Positions 6,393-21,826 of a stretch of DNA of 32,000 nt are shown piece after piece. Both the position numbers and the translations under genes were made by a program. The notes under the pieces are model-generated. The model did no database searches. It saw nothing but the letters and a program-made list of their open reading frames with translations, and had not been told where the DNA came from. Origin of the DNA: Thermoproteus tenax Kra 1 (GTDB lineage: Archaea > Thermoproteota > Thermoprotei > Thermoproteales > Thermoproteaceae); the NCBI RefSeq assembly GCF_000253055.1, contig NC_016070.1, positions 840,001 through 872,000 of the forward strand. Reading direction: 5' to 3'. Each line of letters opens with the position of its first letter. The stretch's first letter is position 1.

Positions 6393-6428
6393 CCTGCCCT
6401 AAAGGGCGAGGCTTTCAGGTGTAATAAC
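6393..6428 (-). repeat. Solo copy (c) of the palindromic repeat in the divergent aminopeptidase/PhoH intergenic region
   Basis: The + strand reads CCTGCCC-TAAA-GGGCGAGG-CTTTCAGGTGTAA. The tail TTCAG(G/T)TGTAA is shared with copies at 13843-13856 and (reverse complement) 2129-2140. It is about 55 nt upstream of the aminopeptidase ATG and directly upstream of the PhoH TATA box AACTTTTAAAC. Confidence 0.75.
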
Positions 6429-9343: not shown

Positions 9344-11311
9344 GTGGCTCTCCGTCTTTCTGTGCGTTTTCGCGTTGTAATAAACGGCGTTGAGGTCGTC
9401 AGAGAGTGGAGTTGGGACAAGATATTGAGCGTTAAAGAGGAGTTGAAAAGAATGGGCTTTAGATGGACCGGCGATGGATGGGTGGGTAGAGTGCGCGACC
9501 CAATGCAGCTCTATACTTTAAGGACGCTCTTAGATCTCACAGACGACGAGCTCGGAAGGCTACAACAGACGGTCCAAGCGCCTCGAGGCGACGTAGTGAT
9601 GGTCGTCGGCGAGATACCCGAAAAGCTGAGGCCCTACGTCGTTGCGAGCTACGGCGCCTCAAGCGTCGTATCAGTCTCCAGATTTATCAGAGACTTCGTG
9701 TCCTCCGACAAGACCGCGATAGCACAATCGCAGTCCTACGAGGACTACGTAAGGAGGGCTGCAGAAGAGTTCAGAGCGCTGTTGAGAGGGCTGGACGTGC
9801 GCGGCGATCTGAAAAGCGCTATAGACTCGGCGATTGAAATTGCGTTGAGCTCGGAGAGGCTCAAATCGCTCTATGAGCGCAGAGTGGCGTGGAGAACCGT
9901 CGAGTTGGGCCCCACCTCAGCGGCTTTGAACTTCGCCAGCAAGGAGTTAGTAGACGAGCTGAGGTCGTTTAAGCTGGCCTACAATATTGTTGGAAAAAAC
10001 GGCGAGGTGAAGCAAACGTTTATACAATTAGTGAAGGTTTCAAGAGATAAAGAAAAGATAATATTGAAATATCCTATATTTCTCCGGAATAAAATATCAG
10101 AAATCTTAAAAAAGTATGGATATATTACTAAGATATCAGATATATCATATAAGAAACTGAGCTATAGGAGCTCGGTCAGGTTGTTGGAGTTCCAGAGAGC
10201 AGCGCTAGAGGCGTGGATCAAGTCGGGCTACCGCGGGACTGTGGCGGTGCCCACCGGCGGAGGAAAGACCTTTATAGGGCTGGGGGCTATGGCCGAGACA
10301 GGCGAGGCCACGTTGATACTCGCAGTGACAAAGGAGTTGGCTTTGCAGTGGATAGAGAGGGTAAGGAAATACCTCGGCGTCCAGGCAGGCCTACTAGGGG
10401 GCGGAAGCCACGATGTGAGAGATGTCACGGTGGCTATTTATAATTCGGCGGTAAAGTATATAGACGAGCTCATGAACAGATTCGGCCTGGTAATCTTCGA
10501 CGAGGCCCACCACGTCCCGGCTGAGACGTTCAAGGAGGTGGCTCTGGCTCTGGACTCGCCGAAGAGGTTGGCGCTCTCGGCGACGCCCAAGAGGGACGAT
10601 GGGAACGAACTGTTGATCTTCGAGGCGGTGGGCCCCCTAGTCTTCAGAGCGTCCTACAGAGAGATGATAGAGGCAGGTTTGGTAGTGCCCATAGAGCACT
10701 ACAGAGTCTACGTCAGATTGACGCCGGAGGAGGAGTCTGAGTACAAATCCGCCGAGAGGTCCACTGATAATGCCATTGTTCTCAGGAATATAGCCGCTCA
10801 AGCCTCAGCCAAGATACAAGCGGCCATTGATATAATTAAACGGGAAGTGTCTCTGGGCCACAAAGTGATAGTGTTTACCCAATTCTTGGAACAGGCCAGG
10901 GCAATATATCAGCGGTTAACGGAGCACCAGATACGCGCCGAGCTGATAACTTCGGAGGAGAGGGACAGAGACGCGGCTTTCGCTCGCTTTGCCTCAGGCC
11001 TAGTGCGCGTGGTGGTGACCACCACAGTGTTGGACGAGGGAGTCGACGTGCCTGACGCGGACGTTGCAGTGGTAGTCAGCGGTAGCGGCTCAAAGAGACA
11101 GATGATACAGCGAGTGGGCAGAATAGTGAGGGCATCCCAAGGGAAAAGCGTCGGACGAGTCTACGAGCTGGTGGCGAGAGGGACAATTGAGGAGGCTCTA
11201 TCGGAGAGTAGACACGTGGACGACATAGTAGAGGAGAGCGTATGCAAAAGGCTTTCTGAGAGCGCGCTTAGAGAGTTCCTGTCTAAGACATCGTTGTTAG
11301 AATACAAATAA
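9344..11311 (+). CDS. XPB/Rad25-type SF2 DNA helicase with a ~280-aa N-terminal extension
   Basis: Helicase motifs are present: AVPTGGGKTF (I), IFDEAHH (II), LSATPKRDDG (III plus RED-like RDD), VLDEGVDVPD (V), QRVGRIVR (VI). The start is uncertain. GTG 9344 gives the maximal ORF, but GTG 9362 fits a leaderless start better. Confidence 0.8.
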   Translation: MALRLSVRFRVVINGVEVVREWSWDKILSVKEELKRMGFRWTGDGWVGRVRDPMQLYTLRTLLDLTDDELGRLQQTVQAPRGDVVMVVGEIPEKLRPYVVASYGASSVVSVSRFIRDFVSSDKTAIAQSQSYEDYVRRAAEEFRALLRGLDVRGDLKSAIDSAIEIALSSERLKSLYERRVAWRTVELGPTSAALNFASKELVDELRSFKLAYNIVGKNGEVKQTFIQLVKVSRDKEKIILKYPIFLRNKISEILKKYGYITKISDISYKKLSYRSSVRLLEFQRAALEAWIKSGYRGTVAVPTGGGKTFIGLGAMAETGEATLILAVTKELALQWIERVRKYLGVQAGLLGGGSHDVRDVTVAIYNSAVKYIDELMNRFGLVIFDEAHHVPAETFKEVALALDSPKRLALSATPKRDDGNELLIFEAVGPLVFRASYREMIEAGLVVPIEHYRVYVRLTPEEESEYKSAERSTDNAIVLRNIAAQASAKIQAAIDIIKREVSLGHKVIVFTQFLEQARAIYQRLTEHQIRAELITSEERDRDAAFARFASGLVRVVVTTTVLDEGVDVPDADVAVVVSGSGSKRQMIQRVGRIVRASQGKSVGRVYELVARGTIEEALSESRHVDDIVEESVCKRLSESALREFLSKTSLLEYK

Positions 11312-11317
11312 AATTTC

Positions 11318-11497
11318 GTGGAGACAACTGAGGCTTGGCTCTATCTGAGCTTGGAAACTGTTATCGGGATTATAATTTTATCAATAATAGGTATAATAGT
11401 AATAAATATTTTTAAAAATATAAATCAATTATATAATTATATAGAGAATGATATAAAATATATATTAAATACAACAAGATTGATTATAAGGATATGA
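11318..11497 (+). CDS. Small hydrophobic ORF 1 of the AT-rich island (59 aa, not in the ORF track)
   Basis: I translated it by hand: VETTEAWLYLSLETVIGIIILSIIGIIVINIFKNINQLYNYIENDIKYILNTTRLIIRI. It has one TM segment, and its TGA overlaps the next ATG (ATGA at 11494-11497). The start codon is uncertain (GTG 11318 or TTG 11351). Confidence 0.35.
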   Translation: METTEAWLYLSLETVIGIIILSIIGIIVINIFKNINQLYNYIENDIKYILNTTRLIIRI

Positions 11498-11610
11498 GAC
11501 TTCTATATCAAATATTAAAAATAATTTTAATATTATTTGAAATAATAATACTATATGATATACTAATTCAATTTAAAATGCTCTTATCTTTGTTTCGATG
11601 GAGTCCATAA
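11494..11610 (+). CDS. Small hydrophobic ORF 2 of the AT-rich island (38 aa)
   Basis: I translated it by hand: MRLLYQILKIILILFEIIILYDILIQFKMLLSLFRWSP. It overlaps ORF 1 by 4 nt and ORF 3 by 13 nt. Confidence 0.3.
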   Translation: MRLLYQILKIILILFEIIILYDILIQFKMLLSLFRWSP

Positions 11611-11870
11611 CTGAGTTAATCTTTATAATTTTTATATTATTATTTCTATTACTAATCTATTATTTAATTTTAAAATTAATATTTAATATATCATTAATAA
11701 AATATAAATTTATTTTATCAAGATATGCTGTTTGTGGCGCTAACTATACTTTTACTTATTATTCGAATGAGTATAATATCTCTGCGGTCAAGGCGTGTTT
11801 AAAAATTATAGTGTTTTCCAATGGCTCCTACGCTGTTTCAACGGCTTACCTTTATGTGAGATCACGATGA
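11598..11870 (+). CDS. Small membrane-anchored ORF 3 of the AT-rich island (90 aa)
   Basis: It has an N-terminal TM helix (LIFIIFILLFLLLIYYLILKLIF). The Tyr/Ser-rich tail has 2 Cys and four N-x-S/T sequons. A 90-codon open frame in such AT-rich DNA is unexpected by chance. Confidence 0.45.
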   Translation: MESITELIFIIFILLFLLLIYYLILKLIFNISLIKYKFILSRYAVCGANYTFTYYSNEYNISAVKACLKIIVFSNGSYAVSTAYLYVRSR

Positions 11871-12132
11871 AGGTAGATCAACGGATTAAGGCGATCAGAA
11901 TCGTCTAGCTTCTTCACACATCGTCTATCGGCCGGACTTCGTCATTAGGATGCACCGTTTATTCGCCTTAAATTTTTAACTTCTCTTTAAAAATAACGTT
12001 ATTACTATATTAAACTATTATTTTTTATTATATTATTATGATTTAATTTAATTACTAAATAGAAAAATTAATTGATTATTATTTATGATCAAGAATACGT
12101 TAAATTAAAAAATATAGCACAAATTAGGCGCT

Positions 12133-12583: not shown

Positions 12584-13315
12584 GTGGACGAGCTGAGGGA
12601 AGTGGCCGACCTGTTAAATAGATCTAATTGCGCTGTAGCGCTCACTGGTGCCGGCGTCTCGACTCCCAGCGGAATTCCGGACTTTAGAGGACCTCAAGGG
12701 CTCTGGAGAAGAATAGATCCACGGAGGTTCGAGATTGCGTACTTCTATGCGCATCCCGGCGAGGTCTGGAGGTTGTTCGTGGATACGTTTCTTGCTCAAG
12801 CTGAGGCTAAGCCTAACCCTGCTCATCTGGCCTTGGCCGAACTAGAGGCCAAGGGGAAGATCTGTGCGGTGATAACGCAGAACGTCGACGGTCTGCATCA
12901 GAGGGCTGGCTCCAAGAGAGTGATCGAGCTACACGGCTCTTTGCGATATGCAGTATGTACGTCATGCGGCGCAAGATTTCCACTCTCAGAGGTCCTTAAA
13001 GGCCCTATAGACGATGCGCCGAGATGTAGAGTATGTGGCGGCGTGTTGAAGCCAGATGTGGTATTCTTTGGGGAGCCGTTGCCCTACGAGGCTCTACAAG
13101 ATGCAATGATGTTGGCGGAGCTCTCGGATGTATTTATGGCGATCGGAACATCTCTAGCGGTGGCGCCGGCCAATAGGTTGCCGTTAATAGCTAAAAGAAA
13201 GGGGGCAAAGTTGGTGATAATAAACCAAGACCCCACGGAGCTTGACGAATTCGCCGATATTATAATAAGAGGTAAAGTTGAAGAAATCTTGCCGCGCATA
13301 GCGGAGCTGATATGA
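12584..13315 (+). CDS. cobB: NAD-dependent protein deacylase, Sir2 family
   Basis: Motifs present: GAGVSTPSGIPDFRG, TQNVDGLH, ELHGS, and the zinc ribbon CxxC...CxxC (CTSCG...CRVCGG). The GTG start is about 22 nt after the GCATTTTAAAGGC box. The stop codon lies inside repeat copy (d). Confidence 0.93.
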   Translation: MDELREVADLLNRSNCAVALTGAGVSTPSGIPDFRGPQGLWRRIDPRRFEIAYFYAHPGEVWRLFVDTFLAQAEAKPNPAHLALAELEAKGKICAVITQNVDGLHQRAGSKRVIELHGSLRYAVCTSCGARFPLSEVLKGPIDDAPRCRVCGGVLKPDVVFFGEPLPYEALQDAMMLAELSDVFMAIGTSLAVAPANRLPLIAKRKGAKLVIINQDPTELDEFADIIIRGKVEEILPRIAELI

Positions 13316-13876
13316 CCGCGCTCCCCGCCCTAAAGGGCGGGGTTTCTCCTCGTCCACGCCTTCATCGGCATCCAAGATACCTCCGGCGTGAGCTCATTGG
13401 GCATGGGGCCGGGCGGCACGCCTCTATCCCTCTCGGCGTGGACGTGCTGCGTCCGCCTTCGACGTACAGCCCTATCCAGCGCCCGGCCAGCGCCTCCCCA
13501 GGCCTCTGCGGAGGCCTTCGGCGGCCCCAGACGTCGGCTCTGTACTCGCTCAGCCCCTCATACGCCGCGTATTTGGGACAGCCCGCGTAGACCTCCGACG
13601 CGGCCTCCCGGAGCATCCCGGCGGGCCCTCCGATCGCCGTATATCCGCAGTGCCCCTCCCCCGTCCTCCAGGACGCCCTTAGTCTGGGCCGCCCCATCCA
13701 CCGCTGGGCCGCCCCTCGTTGGAGCTCGCCCCCCGCGCGGGGCCCGCCCCTGCTCCTCCCTCTTTTTCTGTCATCTTCGCTAACTTTGCCATGAAAAATA
13801 CGCCAATCGGCTTAAATCCATCCCCCATCCTAAAGGGTGGGGCCTTCAGTTGTAAGCGGTGGATGTAGGAGCCCAT
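13312..13876 (-). repeat. GC-rich repeat unit A (candidate structured ncRNA on the minus strand), bounded by two copies of the palindrome
   Basis: Palindrome (e) is at 13822-13842, the box GGATTTAAGCC at 13819-13809, ATGGCAAAG at 13792-13784, and palindrome (d) at 13323-13342. The 5' ~120 nt is homologous to unit B. Positions 13345-13410 are homologous to 26785-26850. Only broken ORFs are present (37 codons, then a 111-codon ORF in another frame). Confidence 0.55.
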
Positions 13877-14005
13877 CTATATCAAACTCTCCGTAGGACG
13901 CCGGTCTCCACGCCCGGGGCTGTGGCTTCGGGCACACGGCGAGCCCACCTGTGAAGGCCGGCGTCGTGAAAGGGAAGTTGCCGAATGTCCGCTAAATCGA
14001 CTCAT

Positions 14006-14560
14006 TCATTTCGGCTCTAAGGTCGCGTGTTCACAAATTATCTTGAACGGACGCCTTGTCTCCAGCGATCTCTCCACGCTCTCTCTAAGGGCATCTATAT
14101 TTATACAACCTATGGCGCGACCCCCCTCCAATAACTTCAGAGCCTCAGAGGCCAGAAACACGAACTTATCGGCTGCCCCCTCCTGTAGCTTCACATAGGC
14201 GGCAGCCAAAATTATCAGCCCTTGAAGCCGGCCATCTCTGCTCTTTCTCCACAGAGGCTCCAACTCGGCGTGCGCCTCCCAGAACCTCTCCTCGTTGAAC
14301 AGTTGGACAAATCGGGCGATGTCTCCAGACCCTATGCGCTCCTCGTTCGTTATATCGATGATGTAGCGCACAGATCCCAATGTAGTCTCGATCCTCTCCT
14401 TGCCCCATTCTGGATCCACATCGCCTAGTACGAGCTCTATATGTTCTGAGGCCACTCTCACATTCAATACAGGCAAAACGCTCCGGAGCTCTCGCAGAAG
14501 CTTGGGTCTATCGCTCGGCGTATGACCACTATTATCAACTATATATAGATATCTCTTCAT
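14006..14560 (-). CDS. DUF309-domain protein (last gene of the six-gene operon)
   Basis: The C-terminal half (FNEERFWEAHAELEPLWRK...LQGLIILAAAYVKLQEG) matches the DUF309 signature as I remember it. The N-terminal ~80 aa are unassigned. The start overlaps the upstream stop (TAATG). Confidence 0.65.
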   Translation of the reverse strand: MKRYLYIVDNSGHTPSDRPKLLRELRSVLPVLNVRVASEHIELVLGDVDPEWGKERIETTLGSVRYIIDITNEERIGSGDIARFVQLFNEERFWEAHAELEPLWRKSRDGRLQGLIILAAAYVKLQEGAADKFVFLASEALKLLEGGRAIGCINIDALRESVERSLETRRPFKIICEHATLEPK

Positions 14561-14892
14561 TAAATTTTAACTAATATCTTCTTTAATTCTATTTGTAAAT
14601 CAACAATTACTTTTAGATCTCCATATGTTTGTTTTATACGTCTAACTTGTGCCAGTGCTCTATTTATTTGCTCCACTAAAGGCGTGTTATCCGGCAGGGG
14701 ACCGCCTGCGTAGAGCTCAACGCCCTCCCCCAGTTTTAGCTCTACGCCGAACGCTCTGGCAAGCTCGACAAATTTATGAAATCGTTCCTCTAAAGCCTCC
14801 AACGTCCCTCTGCTGTCGCGATATCTCTCAGCATATTCCTTTAGGCTCTCGAGCATCCTCTCCAATTCGCTGAGCGAGAGGAAGAGCGTCAT
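14560..14892 (-). CDS. Hypothetical helical/coiled-coil protein (110 aa), operon gene 5
   Basis: It has an ATGA overlap with the upstream gene and a TAATG overlap with the downstream gene. No motif was recognised. The C-terminal codons lie in an AT-rich patch. Confidence 0.6.
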   Translation of the reverse strand: MTLFLSLSELERMLESLKEYAERYRDSRGTLEALEERFHKFVELARAFGVELKLGEGVELYAGGPLPDNTPLVEQINRALAQVRRIKQTYGDLKVIVDLQIELKKILVKI

Positions 14893-15320
14893 TCCGACCC
14901 TATGAAATAGGCTATCTCTATATTCTTAACGCAGAACTTTATGAACTCAGGCGTCACCTCTTTACAGCCTAGCTTGTTGATCTCCACCTCGGGCTCCTTG
15001 ACCGACTCTGAGGGCTTTATCTTGGGCAACGGCGGAAACAGCTCCGGGAGTCTCTCGGGAGTTATATATGCTCTATTGGGCTCTATAACTATCGAGTAGT
15101 CCTTGAGATCCAGTTTTTGAGCCATATCGGTGGCGGCCACCACTATCTCCATTATCTCATTGAAGGCGGCATAAAGATGGCCCATCGAGCCCAGCTGGAT
15201 TAAGTATTGTCCAATCTGGCGCTGGCGCCCCAATAGGGTCGGAGTAGCCTCTATGACTTTCTGGAGCTCTCTCAGCCTCCACAGAACTTGATCGACGTTT
15301 TCCGAACTTATTATTATCAT
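14889..15320 (-). CDS. Hypothetical protein (143 aa), operon gene 4
   Basis: It has ATGA overlaps at both ends. No motif was recognised. Confidence 0.6.
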   Translation of the reverse strand: MIIISSENVDQVLWRLRELQKVIEATPTLLGRQRQIGQYLIQLGSMGHLYAAFNEIMEIVVAATDMAQKLDLKDYSIVIEPNRAYITPERLPELFPPLPKIKPSESVKEPEVEINKLGCKEVTPEFIKFCVKNIEIAYFIGSE

Positions 15321-15454
15321 AGGATTATTCTAATTCCGTTTTCTAGAGGTTGGATATATACATATTCATTTTCACCTAATATCTTTATCAAAATATCTTT
15401 TATATCTTGATCTATTGTGAGAGAAGATACTTTAACTTTTCTGAGGGACTTCAT
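15317..15454 (-). CDS. Hypothetical micro-protein (45 aa, not in the ORF track), operon gene 3
   Basis: I translated it by hand: MKSLRKVKVSSLTIDQDIKDILIKILGENEYVYIQPLENGIRIIL. It exactly bridges the two flanking genes with ATGA overlaps at both ends. Confidence 0.5.
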   Translation of the reverse strand: MKSLRKVKVSSLTIDQDIKDILIKILGENEYVYIQPLENGIRIIL

Positions 15455-15660
15455 GGGACTAGAGTTATGATATTTTTACGTATTATTACATATATTCCTC
15501 TGGGCATGATCTCCAAAAGATCTATAGGTATACTGGGCCGCTGAGGCGGCCAGATTAAGTCAACTCTCTCCCCCTTTATAACAAGAGGTTCAACTCTTCT
15601 TGCAGGTATCGCGTTTATGGTCTTATACAACAAGTTCAATTGATCAGTGTGAACGATCAT
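15451..15660 (-). CDS. Hypothetical protein (69 aa), operon gene 2
   Basis: GAGG lies 4 nt upstream of the ATG, in the 19-nt spacer after the PP-loop gene. An ATGA overlap joins it to the downstream micro-ORF. Confidence 0.55.
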   Translation of the reverse strand: MIVHTDQLNLLYKTINAIPARRVEPLVIKGERVDLIWPPQRPSIPIDLLEIMPRGIYVIIRKNIITLVP

Positions 15661-15679
15661 TGCCTCAGTTCGATGTCGG

Positions 15680-17476
15680 CTATTTAAGGTTCATCTCCTC
15701 ATTTGTCCTATATACTAAATATTGAGCAGATGGACAAGCCTTTGAACAAATGAGACAACCTATACACCTTTCTTTGTCGACTCTGAAGCGCCCATCGGGT
15801 CCCCGACTAAGCGCCTTGGTGGGACACCAACTAATGCACAAATCACAGTGGCCACATATCTGGGCTCTGACCACCAACGCGGCCGCGTGAAGGGCTCCAT
15901 CTCCCTCGATAGTTCTAAAATCGGGCGATATGGTCGCTCGGAGCTTTCCTCCAGATACCTCAACGCCGTTGGAGCCGACGTTGACATTACCCATCATCTT
16001 CAACAGCTCTAGGGCCGTGGGCACATCGGGACGGCCGCCCTCTATCTCCACTTTATCATCTCGGCGTCTGACGATAACAGGATATCTCCCCTCCGCCTTT
16101 ATCTTCAGAAATCTGGCGACATCGCCGGGCACGCCCCTCTTCCATCTCCAGATGCCGTATTCCTCGTAGAACTGCTCTCCGTAGAAGCTCACGACCTCCT
16201 CGGCCAGTCTGCGGTATATCTCAGGGTATCTCCTCCGGACTTGCTCCAGCTCCGCCATCTCGTTGGCCGGACATATAAGGCAGCCGAGTCTGTCGAAGCC
16301 GTACTCATAGGCCTTGTTGTAGGGGAGACCGTGGAGCACTATGTATGCCCATACGTCCAATGCGCTCCACTCGTGAAGCGGCGCCACGACTATAGTCTTG
16401 GCGACCCACTTGCTGGATGAGATGGGCTTCTGCCTCGCCCTCTGGAAGGACTCAGCTGCCCTCTGGCCTACAACCGTCACGACGCCCTGGGGGAACCTCT
16501 CAAGATAGGCCTTAGTGATCGGAGCCATCTTCAATACTTTGCAACACCACCTGTAGTCGCGCGCGGGAGGCCCGAACTCCTTCACGGCACGCCAGAAGGA
16601 ATCGCCGGCCGAAGCCCATATCAGCTCGGCTCCGTACCTCTGGGCCACCAATTTGACGTTCTCGTAAGTCTCCGGGGCCTCCAAGCCTGTGTCGTTAAAG
16701 AGAAGGTAGAAGGGGTGGCCGGTCCTCTTAACGAGATCTAGCGCGACCAAGCTGTCTTTGCCCCCAGAGTAGGACACGACGACAGGCAGCTTATATTGAG
16801 AAAACGCTCTCTTGAGAAACTCGACAGCTCTCTCGGCCTTTCTCTCAATATAGGCTCTGTTGAGCTCTGCGAACGTCTTTAAGTCGCTGGGGACCCCGGG
16901 GGGTAGCTGCGGCTTAGCCCTCCACGACTTTATAATGTGTAGACGTCTACCTCTGAAAAGTTTCGCAACGCCGTGAATCCTCCCATCCCTCGTCGATACA
17001 ACTACGTGCGTATACTTTTTCTCTGGGAGTGAGCCCTCGAGAATTTTCTCCTCATGGACATCGTAATTGACAGGCAGAGTGTCTAAATCCAAGATGGCCC
17101 ACCACCCCCTCCTCTGCGTGAGTATCTCGGCGGCGCCCTCATAGAGGGGTCTGAAACGCCACCTCCTCTCCAGAATATCGTAGAACCTGTGGCCGATTAC
17201 GCGCCCCCTCACGATCACCTCGTCGGCTTGGTCGGCGTAGCCCGGTATCTTGTTGAGGAGCACTACCTCATCTCTGGGTACTAAGAGCGATGCTAAGGCC
17301 CAATCGCCTTCCTCGTTGGCTATGGCCTCTTGCACTATTTCCTTATCAACATCGAAGGCCGGTCTTGGATCAGAAGGCTCCGTTATAGGCGTGGCCGAGA
17401 TCTTTGCGCAGTTGCCAGCCGCCTCGCGGGGGTCCAGTACGGGCACATTGAAGTCCTCGCACCAGTAGAGCAACAT
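15680..17476 (-). CDS. PP-loop ATP pyrophosphatase of the PAPS-reductase family, with an N-terminal PUA-like region and a C-terminal 2x[4Fe-4S] ferredoxin domain
   Basis: The SYSGGKDS PP-loop is present, with PAPS-reductase-like core motifs (RWCCKVLK, GQRAAES). The C-terminus has CGHCDLCISWCP and CIGCLICSKACP. The N-terminal YWCEDFNVPVL looks like a Cys-depleted zinc ribbon. Confidence 0.8.
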   Translation of the reverse strand: MLLYWCEDFNVPVLDPREAAGNCAKISATPITEPSDPRPAFDVDKEIVQEAIANEEGDWALASLLVPRDEVVLLNKIPGYADQADEVIVRGRVIGHRFYDILERRWRFRPLYEGAAEILTQRRGWWAILDLDTLPVNYDVHEEKILEGSLPEKKYTHVVVSTRDGRIHGVAKLFRGRRLHIIKSWRAKPQLPPGVPSDLKTFAELNRAYIERKAERAVEFLKRAFSQYKLPVVVSYSGGKDSLVALDLVKRTGHPFYLLFNDTGLEAPETYENVKLVAQRYGAELIWASAGDSFWRAVKEFGPPARDYRWCCKVLKMAPITKAYLERFPQGVVTVVGQRAAESFQRARQKPISSSKWVAKTIVVAPLHEWSALDVWAYIVLHGLPYNKAYEYGFDRLGCLICPANEMAELEQVRRRYPEIYRRLAEEVVSFYGEQFYEEYGIWRWKRGVPGDVARFLKIKAEGRYPVIVRRRDDKVEIEGGRPDVPTALELLKMMGNVNVGSNGVEVSGGKLRATISPDFRTIEGDGALHAAALVVRAQICGHCDLCISWCPTKALSRGPDGRFRVDKERCIGCLICSKACPSAQYLVYRTNEEMNLK

Positions 17477-17480
17477 GAGT

Positions 17481-17524
17481 CAACCTCGATGTAGCGTTAT
17501 ATAATATTACAACATCGGAGGTTG
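17481..17524. promoter_or_regulatory. Inverted repeat straddling the TATA box of the six-gene operon (candidate operator)
   Basis: CAACCTCGATGT (17481-17492) and ACATCGGAGGTTG (17512-17524) are complementary apart from one extra G. They enclose AGCGTTATATAATATTAC. The A/T box is centred about 24 nt upstream of ATG 17476 on the minus strand. Confidence 0.45.
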
Positions 17525-17628
17525 GCCCAGTATATCCCGAGGCTCTGTCAGCCAAGCCACGGCGGCTCTAGGTCTTCGCCGCTCTTCTCCGCCTAAAGTA
17601 TATAAAAATAGAGCATAAAGAGGTGACG

Positions 17629-18312
17629 ATGCGCGCTCTGATCCTCGCCGGAGGTTTCGGCAAGAGGCTCGCCCCCCTCACCAACGAGGTACCCAAGCCA
17701 CTCGTGCCCGTGGCCGGGAAGCCCATCCTCGTCAGACAGATCGAGTGGCTGAGGGAACAAGGAGTGACCGACTTTGTCGTGGCCGTCGGCTATCTGCGCC
17801 ACAAGGTCTTCGAGGCGCTGGGCGATGGGAGGAAGTATGGAGTGAGGATATTCTACAGCGTCGAGGAGGAGCCCCTCGGCACAGGGGGCGCCATAAAGAA
17901 CGCGGCGCCCTTTCTGGAGGACGACGTGTTCCTGGTCACCAACGGCGATGTGTTGACCAATCTGCGCGTGGAGCCCCTACTGAGGGCGCTCGAGGGCGCC
18001 GACGCCGCCATAGCCCTCGTCCCCCTCAGAAGCCCCTACGGCGTAGTGGAGATAGACGGCGAGGGGCGCGTGCTGGCCTTCAGAGAGAAGCCCGTGCTGG
18101 AGCACTACATCAACGCCGGCGTCTACGCCATGAGGAGGGAGGCGCTCAAGGATCTCCCCGACAGAGGCAACATAGAGGAGACGTTGTTCCCCAGATTGGC
18201 CGAGAGGAGGAGGCTGAGGGCCGTGGTCTATAAAGACGCCTTCTGGCGCTCCATAGACACCCTCAAGGATTTAGAGGAGGCTGAGAAGATGTTGAGCGAT
18301 GGAAAATCTTGA
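17629..18312 (+). CDS. Sugar-1-phosphate nucleotidyltransferase
   Basis: [32 protein letters not shown] is the classic NTP-transferase N-terminus, and EEPLGTGGA is also present. The TATA box GTATATAAAAATAG lies about 25 nt upstream. GTG 17623 is an alternative start. Confidence 0.88.
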
Positions 18313-18937
18313 AGACCTACTCCTGAAATACGCCTTATTGAACGCAGTTAAGTACGGAGGCAGAGCCGACGCTAAGGCAGTGATGTCTAAGTTGATGGCC
18401 GAAAGAGCGGATCTGAGGCCAAGGGCGCGCGAGATAAAAGAGCTTGTGGAACAGCTGGTGGCCAAGGTAAACGCCATGAGCCCTCAGGAGCAGTATACGC
18501 TCTTGGCATCGCGCTGGCCTGAGGCTCTGGAGGAGAGGAGGCCCAGGGAGGAGAAAAGGCCTGGAATCGACTCGCTTCCCGCGCTTCCAAACGCTGAGAG
18601 GGGCGTCGTGGTCCGCTTCGCACCCAACCCAGACTTCGTCCTACATCTCGGCAGCGCGCGGCCGGCCGTGCTCAACTACGCCTACAAGCTGAAATACGGA
18701 GGCAAGTTCATACTTAGGTTCGAAGACACAGATCCCAAGATAAAGAGGCCGTTGATAACGGAGGAGGTTAACGCCTATGAGGCAATAAGGGAAGATCTGA
18801 GGTGGCTCGGCGTGAAGTGGGATGAAGAGTACATTCAATCGCAGCGTATGGAGATATACTACGAATATGCGAGAAGGCTCATCGAGTTAGCGGAGCCTAC
18901 GTGGACACTTGCAAGACCGAGGAGTGGCGCAAGCTGA
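18299..18937 (+). CDS. gltX: Glutamyl-tRNA synthetase, N-terminal segment (frame 1 of a frameshifted gene)
   Basis: It has the archaeal GluRS N-terminal helical domain plus the class I catalytic start [21 protein letters not shown] (HIGH-type HLGS). Homology ends at ...YARRLIEL, and 15 non-homologous codons follow before the stop. Confidence 0.85.
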
Positions 18938-20019
18938 GGAACGCGGGTAAGGCGTGCCCCCACAGAGGGCAGTCGGTGGAGGAGAACTTAGAGCTCTGGG
19001 ACAAAATGCTGAGGGGGGACTTCAGAGAGGGCGAGTCGGTGCTCAGAGTGAAGACAGACTTGACGCACCCAGACCCCAGCGTGAGGGACTGGGTGGCTTT
19101 CAGGATCATAGACGTCGAGAGGAACCCGCACCCTCTAGTCGGAGCTAAATATCACGTGTGGCCCACTTACAACTTCGCCGTATCTATCGACGACCATCTA
19201 ATGGGTGTGACGCACGTGCTCCGCGCGCAAGAACACAGCGTGAACACAGTAAAACAGTCCTTCGTCTTCAAACACTTCGGCTGGACCCAGCCGGTGACTA
19301 TACACTTCGGCAGACTGAAGGTGGAGGGCGGATCTCTCAGCAAGTCTAAACTGAAGGCCCTTAAGTTGCGATACGACGATATAACTATGCCGACCTTGGC
19401 AGGGCTCAGGAGCCGCGGGATCCAGCCGGAGGCAATATGGGAGCTCATACTGAGCGTTGGGATCAAGCCCTCCGACGCGACAGTATCCCTTGCTAACCTC
19501 TTCTCTATCAATAGAAAGATTTTGGACCCGAAGGCGGACAGATATATGTTTGTCCCCGAACCCGTGAAGTTGGTTATCAACCTGCCCAAGAGGATCGTTG
19601 CGAAGATACCGGTGCACCCCAGCTTCCCGGAGAGGGGCCATAGAGAGTACGAGCTAGGCCCCGGGGAGGTCTCACTGTATATCTCCAGGAAGGACGCCGA
19701 ACTAGGCTCCTTTAGGCTAATGGAGTTGGCCAACGTAGTTGTGCGCAGAAAAGAGGGAGATGTATACTACGGAGAGGTGGTCGGATATACGATAGACGAG
19801 GCGCGCGAGGCGAAGATGCCCATAATCCAGTGGACGCCCGATAATTCAAGGGAGGCGGTCGTGATAAGGCCTGTGGCCGCCGGCAAGAAGGCCGTCGAGA
19901 GAGGCCTCATAGAGCCTGGCGCCGAGACTCTGAGGGAGGGCGATATAGTACAGTTCCTTAGATATGGATTTGTCAAATTGGGCTTCCAGAGACACTATGG
20001 AGTTCATATATATCCACGA
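18892..20019 (+). CDS. gltX: Glutamyl-tRNA synthetase, remainder (second frame); no stop codon before the DUF354 ATG
   Basis: [25 protein letters not shown] continues the GluRS sequence. [26 protein letters not shown] and an LSKSK (KMSKS-type) motif are present, with the C-terminal [11 protein letters not shown]. This frame is open from 18826. The listed ORF 18901..21000 continues in frame into the next gene. Confidence 0.85.
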
Positions 20020-21000
20020 ATGAGGGCTCTTTTCGACGCTCTTACTCCGAAACAAGCAAGGATCGCAGCAATCCTAAAGCGGGAGGGCGGCCTACAGCTG
20101 ACGATCACATGTAGGGAGTACTACCATCTGAGGGACATGTTGGAGCAATACAAAGTCGACTACATCTGCATAGGTAGGTACGGGGAGACGACCGAGGAGA
20201 AGTTGGTCGAGGGGCTCAAAAGACAGCTCCAGATGGTCGAGATAATGAGGGGCTTGGACGGAGTAGTGTCCTTCCCGAGCCCCGATGCCGTAAGGACCGC
20301 GTTTGGCCTCGGGAAGAAGTCTGTGGTATTGAACGACACGCCGCATGCCTATCACGCCAATTCGCTGACTATACCGCTCTCCGATGCGCTGATAGCGCCG
20401 TCCGCGATACCGCAAGACGCATGGAGGCGTTATTGTCCCAAGAAAGTGATGACTTTCGACGGCGTGTTTGAGTATATGTGGACGTCGAGACATACCCCCA
20501 ACTTAGAGAGCGTGAGGAAGTTGGGCCTGGAGCCAGGCAGCTACGTGGTCTTTAGACCCGAGGAGGCCAAGGCGGCGTACTACCAGTGGAACAACGTCCA
20601 GCTTAGGGCCAAGCTAGTCGAACTTGTCAAGGAGATGGGCTACGTTGTGGTCAATATCCCCAGATATCCAGACCAAGTGATCGAGGGAGCTATAAATTTA
20701 ATAAAGGCGGTGGACCACTTAGATCTAGCGTATTATGCCGCAGCGGTCATCACAGGTGGGCTGACTATGTCGACGGAGGCCGCTCTGTTAGGCACGCCCG
20801 CCGTTTCGTACTTTCCCGGCGACGTGTATATAGATAGGTATCTGGAGAGGGCCGGGGCCCCACTCCTTAGGTGCTCTTCAATGGACGAGTGCATCCATGT
20901 TGTCAAGAAGGCGTTAAGTATGGGCAGAGCGCCCCCGCCCAAGATGGAGGATCCGCTCAAGGCGATCGTCGCGGCGGTTCAGGAAATATTCGGAGGATAA
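20020..21000 (+). CDS. DUF354 family protein (GT-B glycosyltransferase-like)
   Basis: [32 protein letters not shown] resembles the DUF354 N-terminus (MKI.FDI..P..V..F...I..L...GHEV.ITAR) as I remember it. At 326 aa it fits the family size. ATG 20020 is in frame with the upstream gltX segment. Confidence 0.65.
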
Positions 21001-21440: not shown

Positions 21441-21826
21441 TCGCCCATCTCTGTTACCTCCAGACTGCCCACACCGTGGGGGCCTCGGCCGTTGCCCGGG
21501 GTTAGTGGGCCGCGGCTGGGGCAGGCATTGCGGCGTCCCCCGCCGGGGCCATCTTGCGTTTGAGTTTGCCCCCGCGCGGCGCCCGCCCTTGCCCCCTTTT
21601 TCTTGGCCCTCTTCACAAGCTCTGCCATGAAAATAGATGGCTTAAGACCTACCCCATCCTAAAGGGCGGGGCTTGCTGTTTGTACTGTCAGCCACATCCC
21701 CGGCCCTGGGGGTACGGCCGATCAGCCGCGCCCGTGCGCCGGGGCACGGCCGGCCTCCTCCGCCCCGCCCTCGCGGCGTCTGGCGGGGGCGGGCCAAAAA
21801 TCTGACCCCGGGGGAGGGCCGGGACA
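21441..21826 (-). repeat. GC-rich repeat unit B: one 5' module plus the tail of a second unit, joined at palindrome (f)
   Basis: The palindrome CCCCATCC-TAAA-GGGCGGGG is at 21652-21671, the box GGTCTTAAGCC at 21649-21639, and ATGGCAGAG at 21628-21620. Positions 21620-21510 are homologous to unit A and 21465-21522 to unit b. Positions 21740-21800 resemble the CCTCCTCG plus stem-loop 3' module of units A and C. Confidence 0.55.

Follow-up and report, generated by a model that had tools for sequence, protein, structure and literature searches.

A BrxP-like PP-loop enzyme and a conserved cassette of small genes as probably independent neighbours in Thermoproteus tenax

A catalytic cysteine in the C-terminal tail (an ECGLH-type motif) is a defining feature of sulfonucleotide reductases, which have the 3′-phosphoadenosine 5′-phosphosulfate (PAPS) reductase fold. 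The same fold occurs in enzymes of defence systems, and a 2026 comparative study describes in BrxP and in a subset of SspD proteins a PAPS-reductase region, an alpha+beta region and a Cys-rich ferredoxin-like region (PMC12839542). Here, we analysed a protein of this kind in a 32,000-nucleotide (nt) stretch of the archaeon Thermoproteus tenax Kra 1 (contig NC_016070.1, positions 840,001 to 872,000, hereafter the window), where six minus-strand open reading frames (ORFs) encode 598, 69, 45, 143, 110 and 184 amino acids (aa) and are named by these lengths g598, g69, g45, g143, g110 and g184. The original prediction had described them as one co-translated six-gene system, probably a complex, for nucleic-acid modification. 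Our own reading of the sequence agrees on the six ORFs and their junctions. The region is nevertheless most likely one gene plus a five-gene operon, and the best explanation as a whole is, in our judgement probably, that of two units with independent functions, brought side by side in the Thermoproteus lineage: g598 alone and the five small genes with their own promoter.

The evidence for independence comes from the distribution of both units. Scanning one genome per species, we recovered 80 loci with homologues of g598 (15680..17476, minus strand; ORF as placed by the original prediction) from Thermoprotei, Desulfurococcales, Methanosarcinales, Thermoplasmata, Thermococcaceae, Asgard, Bathyarchaeia, Aenigmatarchaeota and other lineages. 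None of the small genes was found by tblastn and profile hidden Markov models (HMMs) within 8 kb of the homologue at 77 of these loci, and only at the other three, all from Thermoproteus, do they lie beside it, in the window order. The original prediction had itself named a phyletic and neighbourhood comparison as the test that could refute it, and in this comparison the small ORFs are not conserved beside the PP-loop gene. The latter is placed differently in each lineage examined and adjoins the small genes only in Thermoproteus; in Pyrobaculum (L004) a convergent gene abuts it, and the Vulcanisaeta loci L005, L087 and L089 each have yet other enzyme-gene neighbours. When neighbours within 4 kb were clustered across the 80 loci, no partner was shared across archaeal phyla and the partners were lineage-specific only, save for one gene resembling the tRNA methyltransferase Trm1.

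The small genes, in turn, persist without the enzyme. The conserved unit is a four-gene cassette, g69-g45-g143-g110, which we observed in three genomic contexts, the first two of them classed from 26 loci obtained in a metagenome scan with g110. Type A (Thermoproteus-like) has the order NTP-transferase (nucleoside triphosphate transferase), g598, g69, g45, g143, g110, g184 and Sir2, kept in all Thermoproteus-type loci (L001-L003, L094 and L097-L100). Type B (about 15 loci), which is Pyrobaculum by source names (for example strains WP30 and JCHS_4), has NTP-transferase, g69, g45, g143, g110, an insert, g184 and Sir2, and no g598. One such locus, L081, found via g184 relatives, carries the DUF354, glutamyl-tRNA synthetase (GluRS) and NTP-transferase genes on one side and Sir2 on the other, as in the window, and between them g69, g45, g143, g110, two mini-CBS genes and then g184, with no trace of a PP-loop gene in 14.5 kb; the other type-B loci have an insert of ~450 bp where L081 has the two mini-CBS genes. 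In type C, traced from the most divergent g143 cluster, the cassette follows a type-IV-pilus-like cluster, with neither g184 nor g598 nearby. Two assemblies outside Thermoproteus contain both units: in GCA_027051355.1 the type-C cassette is on the contig of L121 and the PP-loop gene on another contig (L088) in a different neighbourhood, and in one Pyrobaculum metagenome-assembled genome the accession numbers of the g598-family and cassette proteins are ~650 apart.

Within the cassette, the start/stop overlaps of the four genes are kept in every context, orthologous loci retaining overlapping or abutting junctions (1-14 nt, or no gap), and g110 is the best-conserved member (53-72% identity across contexts). 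The accessory gene g184 follows the cassette in types A and B and occurs without it in L083-L086, so that it looks like an optional addition that also occurs alone in other lineages. Because the cassette fills the NTP-transferase/Sir2 slot in both Thermoproteus and Pyrobaculum, it was probably already there in their common ancestor.

In the window, the cassette consists of g69 (15451..15660), g45 (15317..15454), g143 (14889..15320) and g110 (14560..14892), in this order and followed by g184 (14006..14560), all on the minus strand. ATGA overlaps join g69/g45, g45/g143 and g143/g110, placing such an overlap on both sides of g45, and a TAATG overlap joins g110/g184. The ratio of nonsynonymous to synonymous substitution rates (dN/dS), taken from the informative orthologue pair L104/L112 (dS 0.18-0.43), was 0.03 for g69, 0.08 for g143, 0.08 for g184, 0.08-0.09 for g110 and 0.13-0.17 for g45. 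With values of 0.03-0.17, purifying selection acts on each of the five small ORFs, which are real genes. This includes the 45-aa gene that had been proposed from its fit between two ATGA junctions, whose orthologues measure 43-45 aa in all three context types.

The spacer between g598 and g69 is 19 nt long (CCGACATCGAACTGAGGCA), with GAGG 2 nt before the g69 ATG. Together with the sequence just upstream it makes up a putative promoter of the small-gene operon (15661..15688, minus strand), in which the TATA box CTTAAATA precedes the spacer and overlaps the stop codon of g598. This box agrees at every position with the archaeal consensus YTTAWAWA and stops 21 nt short of the ATG of g69; it has a background P of 0.0034 per 21-nt window and is the best among the 24 gene starts of the window. 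A TATA-like box lies at the same distance before g69 in types A, B and C, in flanks that are otherwise unalignable. The enzyme gene has a TATA-like box of its own in the intergenic stretch that separates it from the divergently oriented NTP-transferase gene (17477..17622, minus strand): ATTATATA, ending 22 nt before the ATG with one mismatch to YTTAWAWA. The genes that stand first in other units of the window (upp, PhoH, ferredoxin, g598 and NTP-transferase) have one-mismatch boxes ending at −17 to −22, and a window scan found no TATA-like box before the operon-internal genes GluRS and AAA_18.

These data bear directly on the reading of all six genes as a single system for nucleic-acid modification, the small proteins serving as accessory subunits, maybe through a Thermoproteus-specific recruitment. 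The genes share a strand, GAGG in the 19-nt spacer stands before g69, the order is kept in all Thermoproteus-type loci, and in L003, also from Thermoproteus, the longest version of the g598 ORF reaches into the start of g69. However, adjacency is confined to one genus-level lineage, with the enzyme doing without the small proteins in every other archaeal lineage sampled, the cassette persists in types B and C with no enzyme gene nearby, and g69 keeps its own perfect TATA box. A single system is thereby largely refuted, and we regard it as very unlikely.

The enzyme itself combines, in order, a degenerate N-terminal Zn ribbon, an N-terminal module, a PP-loop domain, a linker and a 2x[4Fe-4S] ferredoxin domain. 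The PP-loop domain matches PAPS_reduct (PF01507) with an E-value of 1.1e-44 (153 bits against a cut-off of 22.5; residues 232-404, profile positions 2-174 of 175), a linker of alpha+beta character covers residues ~440-535, and a C-terminal 4Fe-4S dicluster region (residues 536-585) was assigned by Pfam Fer4 families. In an alignment of 14 diverse homologues, SGGKDS is invariant at residues 237-242, inside SYSGGKDS at 235-242, as are two CxxCxxCxxxC motifs at 541-551 and 571-581 and the cysteines C311-C312 and C399/C402. The CC(311-312)...CxxC(399-402) residues are in register with the [4Fe-4S] ligands of the Pseudomonas adenosine 5′-phosphosulfate (APS) reductase 2GOY, so that three clusters are predicted rather than two. 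The same alignment contains no invariant or nearly invariant cysteine from residue 403 up to the ferredoxin domain at 541, and g598 therefore lacks the catalytic C-terminal cysteine of sulfonucleotide reductases. Thus, the PP-loop, the two [4Fe-4S] motifs and the degenerate ribbon of the original prediction all stand, the ribbon retaining two cysteines in g598 where homologues such as P0099 and P0120 have CxxC...CxxC. The PUA-like segment that it had also proposed was confirmed neither by Pfam nor by PDB profiles, its sole support being one family fragment (P0194) named 'PUA domain' by the Joint Genome Institute; the conserved module at residues ~30-190 is putatively RNA-binding.

Over its full length, g598 is best matched by the NCBIfam model PRK13795.1-2 ('hypothetical protein'; E 1.1e-121), which aligns end to end (residues 3-586 against model positions 12-584). 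This model belongs to the archaeal PAPS-reductase/ferredoxin family PRK13795 (NCBIfam NF010366-NF010369), which carries no assigned function. By its architecture g598 is a member of this family and by its score, as far as model matching can tell, it is a divergent (Thermoproteaceae) branch, because 407.2 bits fall below the equivalog cut-off of 456 for the sub-model. Its nearest named homologues are from Thermoproteus (67-70% identity), a further protein, P0001, is 99% identical to g598, and the PDB holds no full-length structure of the family.

Among named proteins, the closest relative is BrxP of type-4 BREX (bacteriophage exclusion), matched in PADLOC with an E-value of 2e-54 over residues 195-595 (model positions 95-520 of 779). 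The kinship with DndC and SspD that the original prediction had put forward is real, at 1e-15 and 5.6e-15 in PADLOC, but both lie far behind BrxP, and TIGR03183 (DndC) scores 42.5 bits against a cut-off of 290.4. With BrxP, g598 shares the order of PAPS-reductase PP-loop, alpha+beta region and Cys-rich 4Fe-4S ferredoxin-like region. By contrast, it lacks the DUF4007 fusion, the match ending at model position 520, and bears an extra conserved N-terminal module of ~190 residues with the Zn ribbon; its neighbours tested include no BrxC, PglZ, BrxL or cysteine desulfurase; and it is a single-copy gene in housekeeping neighbourhoods across archaeal phyla, not part of a sporadic defence island. Similarly, g598 resembles DndC and SspD as a PAPS-reductase-fold PP-loop ATP pyrophosphatase with Fe-S ligands and with weak but significant HMM similarity, and differs from them in domain architecture and in the absence of dndB, dndD, dndE, sspB and sspC among the neighbours tested.

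More broadly, scans of 11 neighbouring proteins (Pfam and PADLOC, with NCBIfam on five window proteins) found no BREX, Dnd or Ssp partner, and the suggestion that the genes might be a defence-related module is for this reason without support. A specific form of it would join g598 to the superfamily 2 (SF2) helicase at 9344-11311 in a hidden Dnd/Pbe-like locus for DNA phosphorothioation. This XPB-like helicase matches PADLOC PbeA at 3.8e-55, g598 matches BrxP, DndC and SspD, and a related helicase lies ~0.9 kb downstream of the g598 homologue in L006. However, the defining trait of PbeA is the fusion of its helicase with an HKD nuclease (PMC10853773), and Pfam finds no such nuclease in the window protein, which scores equally against housekeeping XPB (8.8e-56) and reaches PbeA via its SF2 core only (370-616). 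As no PbeC, PbeD or DndD-type match occurs among the neighbours tested, and as co-occurrence with the helicase outside Thermoproteus amounts to one clear case in 77 loci, about chance level, we rejected the link and consider such a locus hardly credible. As an observation in its own right, the 655-aa helicase has an uncharacterised N-terminal part of ~280 residues and a position conserved in Thermoproteus.

A more conventional assignment would make g598 an assimilatory APS/PAPS reductase that produces sulfite for cysteine synthesis, with the ferredoxin domain as built-in electron donor. The PAPS_reduct fold and the cluster ligands in register with CysH of P. aeruginosa (2GOY) accord with this, and two PAPS-reductase homologues of M. 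jannaschii reportedly reduce both APS and PAPS (PMC6286981). However, g598 falls far under every curated CysH/APS-reductase cut-off (PRK02090, 83.6 bits against 154; TIGR00434, 74.4 against 165.1; TIGR02055, 66.6 against 235.3; TIGR02057, 45.8 against 254.2) and scores ~100 bits higher against BrxP than against the CysH models. It also lacks the conserved cysteine after CxxC that reductases carry in their catalytic C-terminal tail, and has extra N- and C-terminal domains, of which the conserved 190-residue N-terminal module with its Zn ribbon has no role in sulfate reduction. In addition, the family occurs widely among archaea that have no sulfate activation, many methanogens with g598-type homologues lacking the genes for it (PMC6286981). 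Sulfate assimilation is thus quite unlikely as the role of g598.

Instead, g598 is likely a sulfur-inserting nucleic-acid modification enzyme, an assignment made from its sequence because of the fold and cofactor ligands, the similarity to BrxP far above that to CysH, the missing reductase cysteine, the conserved N-terminal Zn-ribbon module and the presence of the family in archaea without sulfate activation (PMC6286981). In the mechanism we propose, the PP-loop would use ATP to adenylate a site in the target nucleic acid, which would most likely be RNA (tRNA or rRNA), the [4Fe-4S] cluster of the catalytic domain (CC...CxxC) would carry or activate the sulfide that displaces the adenylate, and the C-terminal ferredoxin domain would supply electrons. 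The enzyme would in this respect act like Fe-S-dependent thiolases and the phosphorothioation enzymes DndC, SspD and BrxP, unlike a sulfate-assimilation reductase. A weak hint of a tRNA connection comes from the Trm1-like tRNA methyltransferase gene (~360 aa; identity assigned by eye from an 'FYNP..NRD' motif, not by profile), which lies beside the PP-loop gene in L033, L041, L044, L053, L058, L066 and L068 at a median distance of 22 nt, in Desulfurococcaceae, Thermoplasmata and Aenigmatarchaeota (at least 3 phyla).

The cassette proteins proved harder to place. The original prediction had recognised no function in the four middle proteins, and g69, g45, g143 and g110 indeed match nothing at E <0.01 in Pfam, NCBIfam, PADLOC or PHROGs, a set that includes toxin-antitoxin, defence and viral families, so that at the level of sequence comparison they resemble nothing known. 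The 69-aa protein, with invariant residues W37-P38, P45, Y57-V58 and P69, had no match in these libraries or in the PDB; PDB profile searches gave a borderline 23-residue match of g45 to mS35 (E 0.02) and an Sm-like match (E 1.3). An AlphaFold2 model of g143 (predicted local distance difference test score, pLDDT, 67) shows a long helical hairpin (6-69) and a small beta-sheet, a Pro-rich linker of low pLDDT with a conserved LPExxPxLP motif and, at the C terminus, a beta-hairpin in which C119 and C130 are conserved, and Foldseek found no PDB match to it at E <1. The N-terminal half of g110 is helical, its single-sequence model being poor (pLDDT 56) and unusable. The DUF309 assignment of g184 holds (PF03745, residues 82-133; 53.5 bits against a cut-off of 27, E 1.9e-14), with a weak match to T. 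thermophilus TTHA0068 (PDB 2CWY), from which g184 differs by an additional, alpha/beta-looking N-terminal domain of ~75 residues (~1-75); DUF309 itself is without known function. Two further ideas were rejected: an AbrB/SpoVT-like fold, guessed by eye for g45 and for g69 in its C-terminal half, is unsupported by Pfam, PDB profiles and hhalign, and hhalign found nothing for a paralogy of g143 and g110.

A rival reading, to which the atypical base composition of the cassette lends weight, makes it a foreign mobile, defence or toxin-antitoxin-like module that landed by chance beside g598. The two AT-rich patches reported for the operon are present, with a GC content of 0.21 at 14561-14650, the 3′ end of g110 just upstream of g184, and of 0.28 at 15321-15500, covering the whole of g45 and the 3′ end of g69. 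The GC content of g45 is 0.275, and that at third codon positions (GC3) is 0.22 for g45, 0.40 for g69 and 0.45 for g110, compared with ~0.65 in neighbouring genes. A foreign origin would also fit the small, tightly coupled genes, the three contexts and the narrow, patchy distribution, an exhaustive HMMER search of 1.84 billion (1.84e9) representative proteins having found g143 in 6 clusters only; this search replaced a word-indexed one that returned only a 99%-identical copy and overlooked known orthologues. Against this, the cassette has no PADLOC or PHROGs match and was found in none of the viral contigs of two IMG/VR scans, on which grounds a viral origin was rejected, and no integrase, tRNA gene or flanking repeats are seen in the window (no RNA gene was found there by Rfam or ARAGORN). 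The NTP-transferase/Sir2 slot common to Thermoproteus and Pyrobaculum, together with a divergence that tracks housekeeping genes (g110 58-60%, g598 ~60%), points to vertical inheritance, purifying selection is strong, and the low GC3, which g45 orthologues share (0.30-0.43), is a stable property and not a signature of recent transfer. We therefore hold a foreign module to be unlikely.

Frameshifts, a further point in favour of a foreign module, were seen in Pyrobaculum-type loci. In L081 (5481-5825), g69 and g45 each need a frameshift to be read through, that of g69 at a poly-C run, and the shift in g45 is also present in L082, an independent Logan assembly, both genes being intact in the other type-B loci; this may reflect lineage-specific decay of the two smallest genes. 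Separately, in the type-C loci (L090-L092 and L119-L121) the pilus-like cluster lies directly upstream of the cassette (977-5616 in L119), where it comprises two pilin-like proteins bearing class-III-type signal peptides, a polytopic platform protein of 504 aa, an ATPase of the T2SSE family and two small proteins (71 and 167 aa), and is preceded by a helix-turn-helix regulator gene. A link between cassette and pilus was rejected, as type-IV-pilus-like genes are neither near type A and B cassettes nor in the window.

Returning to two independent units, we propose that the operon g69-g45-g143-g110-g184 would be driven by the TATA box at the very end of g598, that its conserved overlaps would enforce stoichiometric co-translation and that the four core products may form a small soluble hetero-oligomer. 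The g184 protein, joined in Pyrobaculum by the two CBS mini-proteins, would be an optional accessory module, possibly regulatory or ligand-sensing, to which the CBS mini-genes of L081 and the DUF309 gene give a hint.

Several points weigh against this account of both units. Read-through from g598 into g69 over the 19-nt spacer is entirely possible, which would make the six genes co-transcribed, and the overlapping ORF call in L003 is a further point. For the enzyme, four diverse fragments covering the N-terminal module gave no Pfam match at E up to 10, a 19-sequence profile of the module matches nothing among PDB sequences, the Trm1-like gene is convergent and adjacent at 7 loci only, and we found in the literature no functional work on the family, its substrate or its chemistry. 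For the cassette, a complex and its function are pure inference and amount to a guess, and the model of g143 is of moderate quality and that of g110 poor.

Further features lie elsewhere in the window. A palindromic hairpin, CCCCGCCC-TAAA-GGGCGGGG, occurs in four copies (6398-6411, 13323-13342, 13823-13842 and 21658-21671; 0.01 expected by chance), all of which appear intergenic. On the minus strand, a TATA-like box and 'ATGGCA(A/G)AG' come after the copies at 13823 and 21658, which share ~135 nt at 74% identity, and the hairpin may represent a repeat associated with promoters or terminators, or else a small gene or RNA present in several copies. An ORF-poor insert of 690 bp (13316-14005; GC 0.66) separates the convergent genes Sir2 and g184 and is absent from L002/L003 and Pyrobaculum-type loci, in which Sir2 and g184 adjoin or overlap each other. 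Its ORFs have no Pfam match and it has no similarity to any locus compared; Rfam gives a weak HgcC match (13304-13383, minus strand; E 0.004) and the minus-strand fold has z = -2.5. The insert is a candidate for a structured RNA or a decayed insertion. At 18299-21000, a frame change near 18880-18900 divides the GluRS gene (N-terminal part 18299-18937, the rest from 18901), and the remainder reads in frame into the DUF354 gene at ~20008-20020 with no stop. Thermoproteus L001 has a single GluRS gene of 574 aa and, joined to it by an ATGA overlap, a separate DUF354 gene of 323 aa. The window sequence either contains two errors here or records genuine frame changes in an essential gene. Finally, an 820-bp region between the XPB-like helicase and ferredoxin genes (11311-12132; GC 0.24) holds no ORF of at least 100 aa, and its equivalent in L002/L003 is AT-rich too, with short hydrophobic ORFs only.

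A broader and, at this stage, rather doubtful possibility is that the PRK13795 enzyme is a housekeeping sulfur inserter of nucleic acids and the stock from which BrxP and SspD were recruited. It would introduce into tRNA or rRNA, for example, a thio-base or a phosphorothioate in the backbone, with the N-terminal Zn-ribbon module binding the RNA and three Fe-S clusters delivering sulfur, and the BrxP/SspD enzymes of BREX type 4 and Ssp defence would have been drawn from this cellular stock. Separately, the cassette would encode a new four-subunit complex of unseen folds, restricted to Thermoproteaceae and one related lineage.

As the six-gene modification system is not upheld, no new system is revealed here, and in the compact genomes of crenarchaea the close spacing of genes is only a weak indication of shared function. 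The g598 family is labelled 'PAPS reductase' in databases, yet it lacks the catalytic cysteine, has three predicted Fe-S clusters and is most BrxP-like, and the question of its substrate concerns the whole family, not this locus. The four-gene cassette, in turn, is well-conserved, strongly selected 'dark matter' of a few Thermoproteales lineages.

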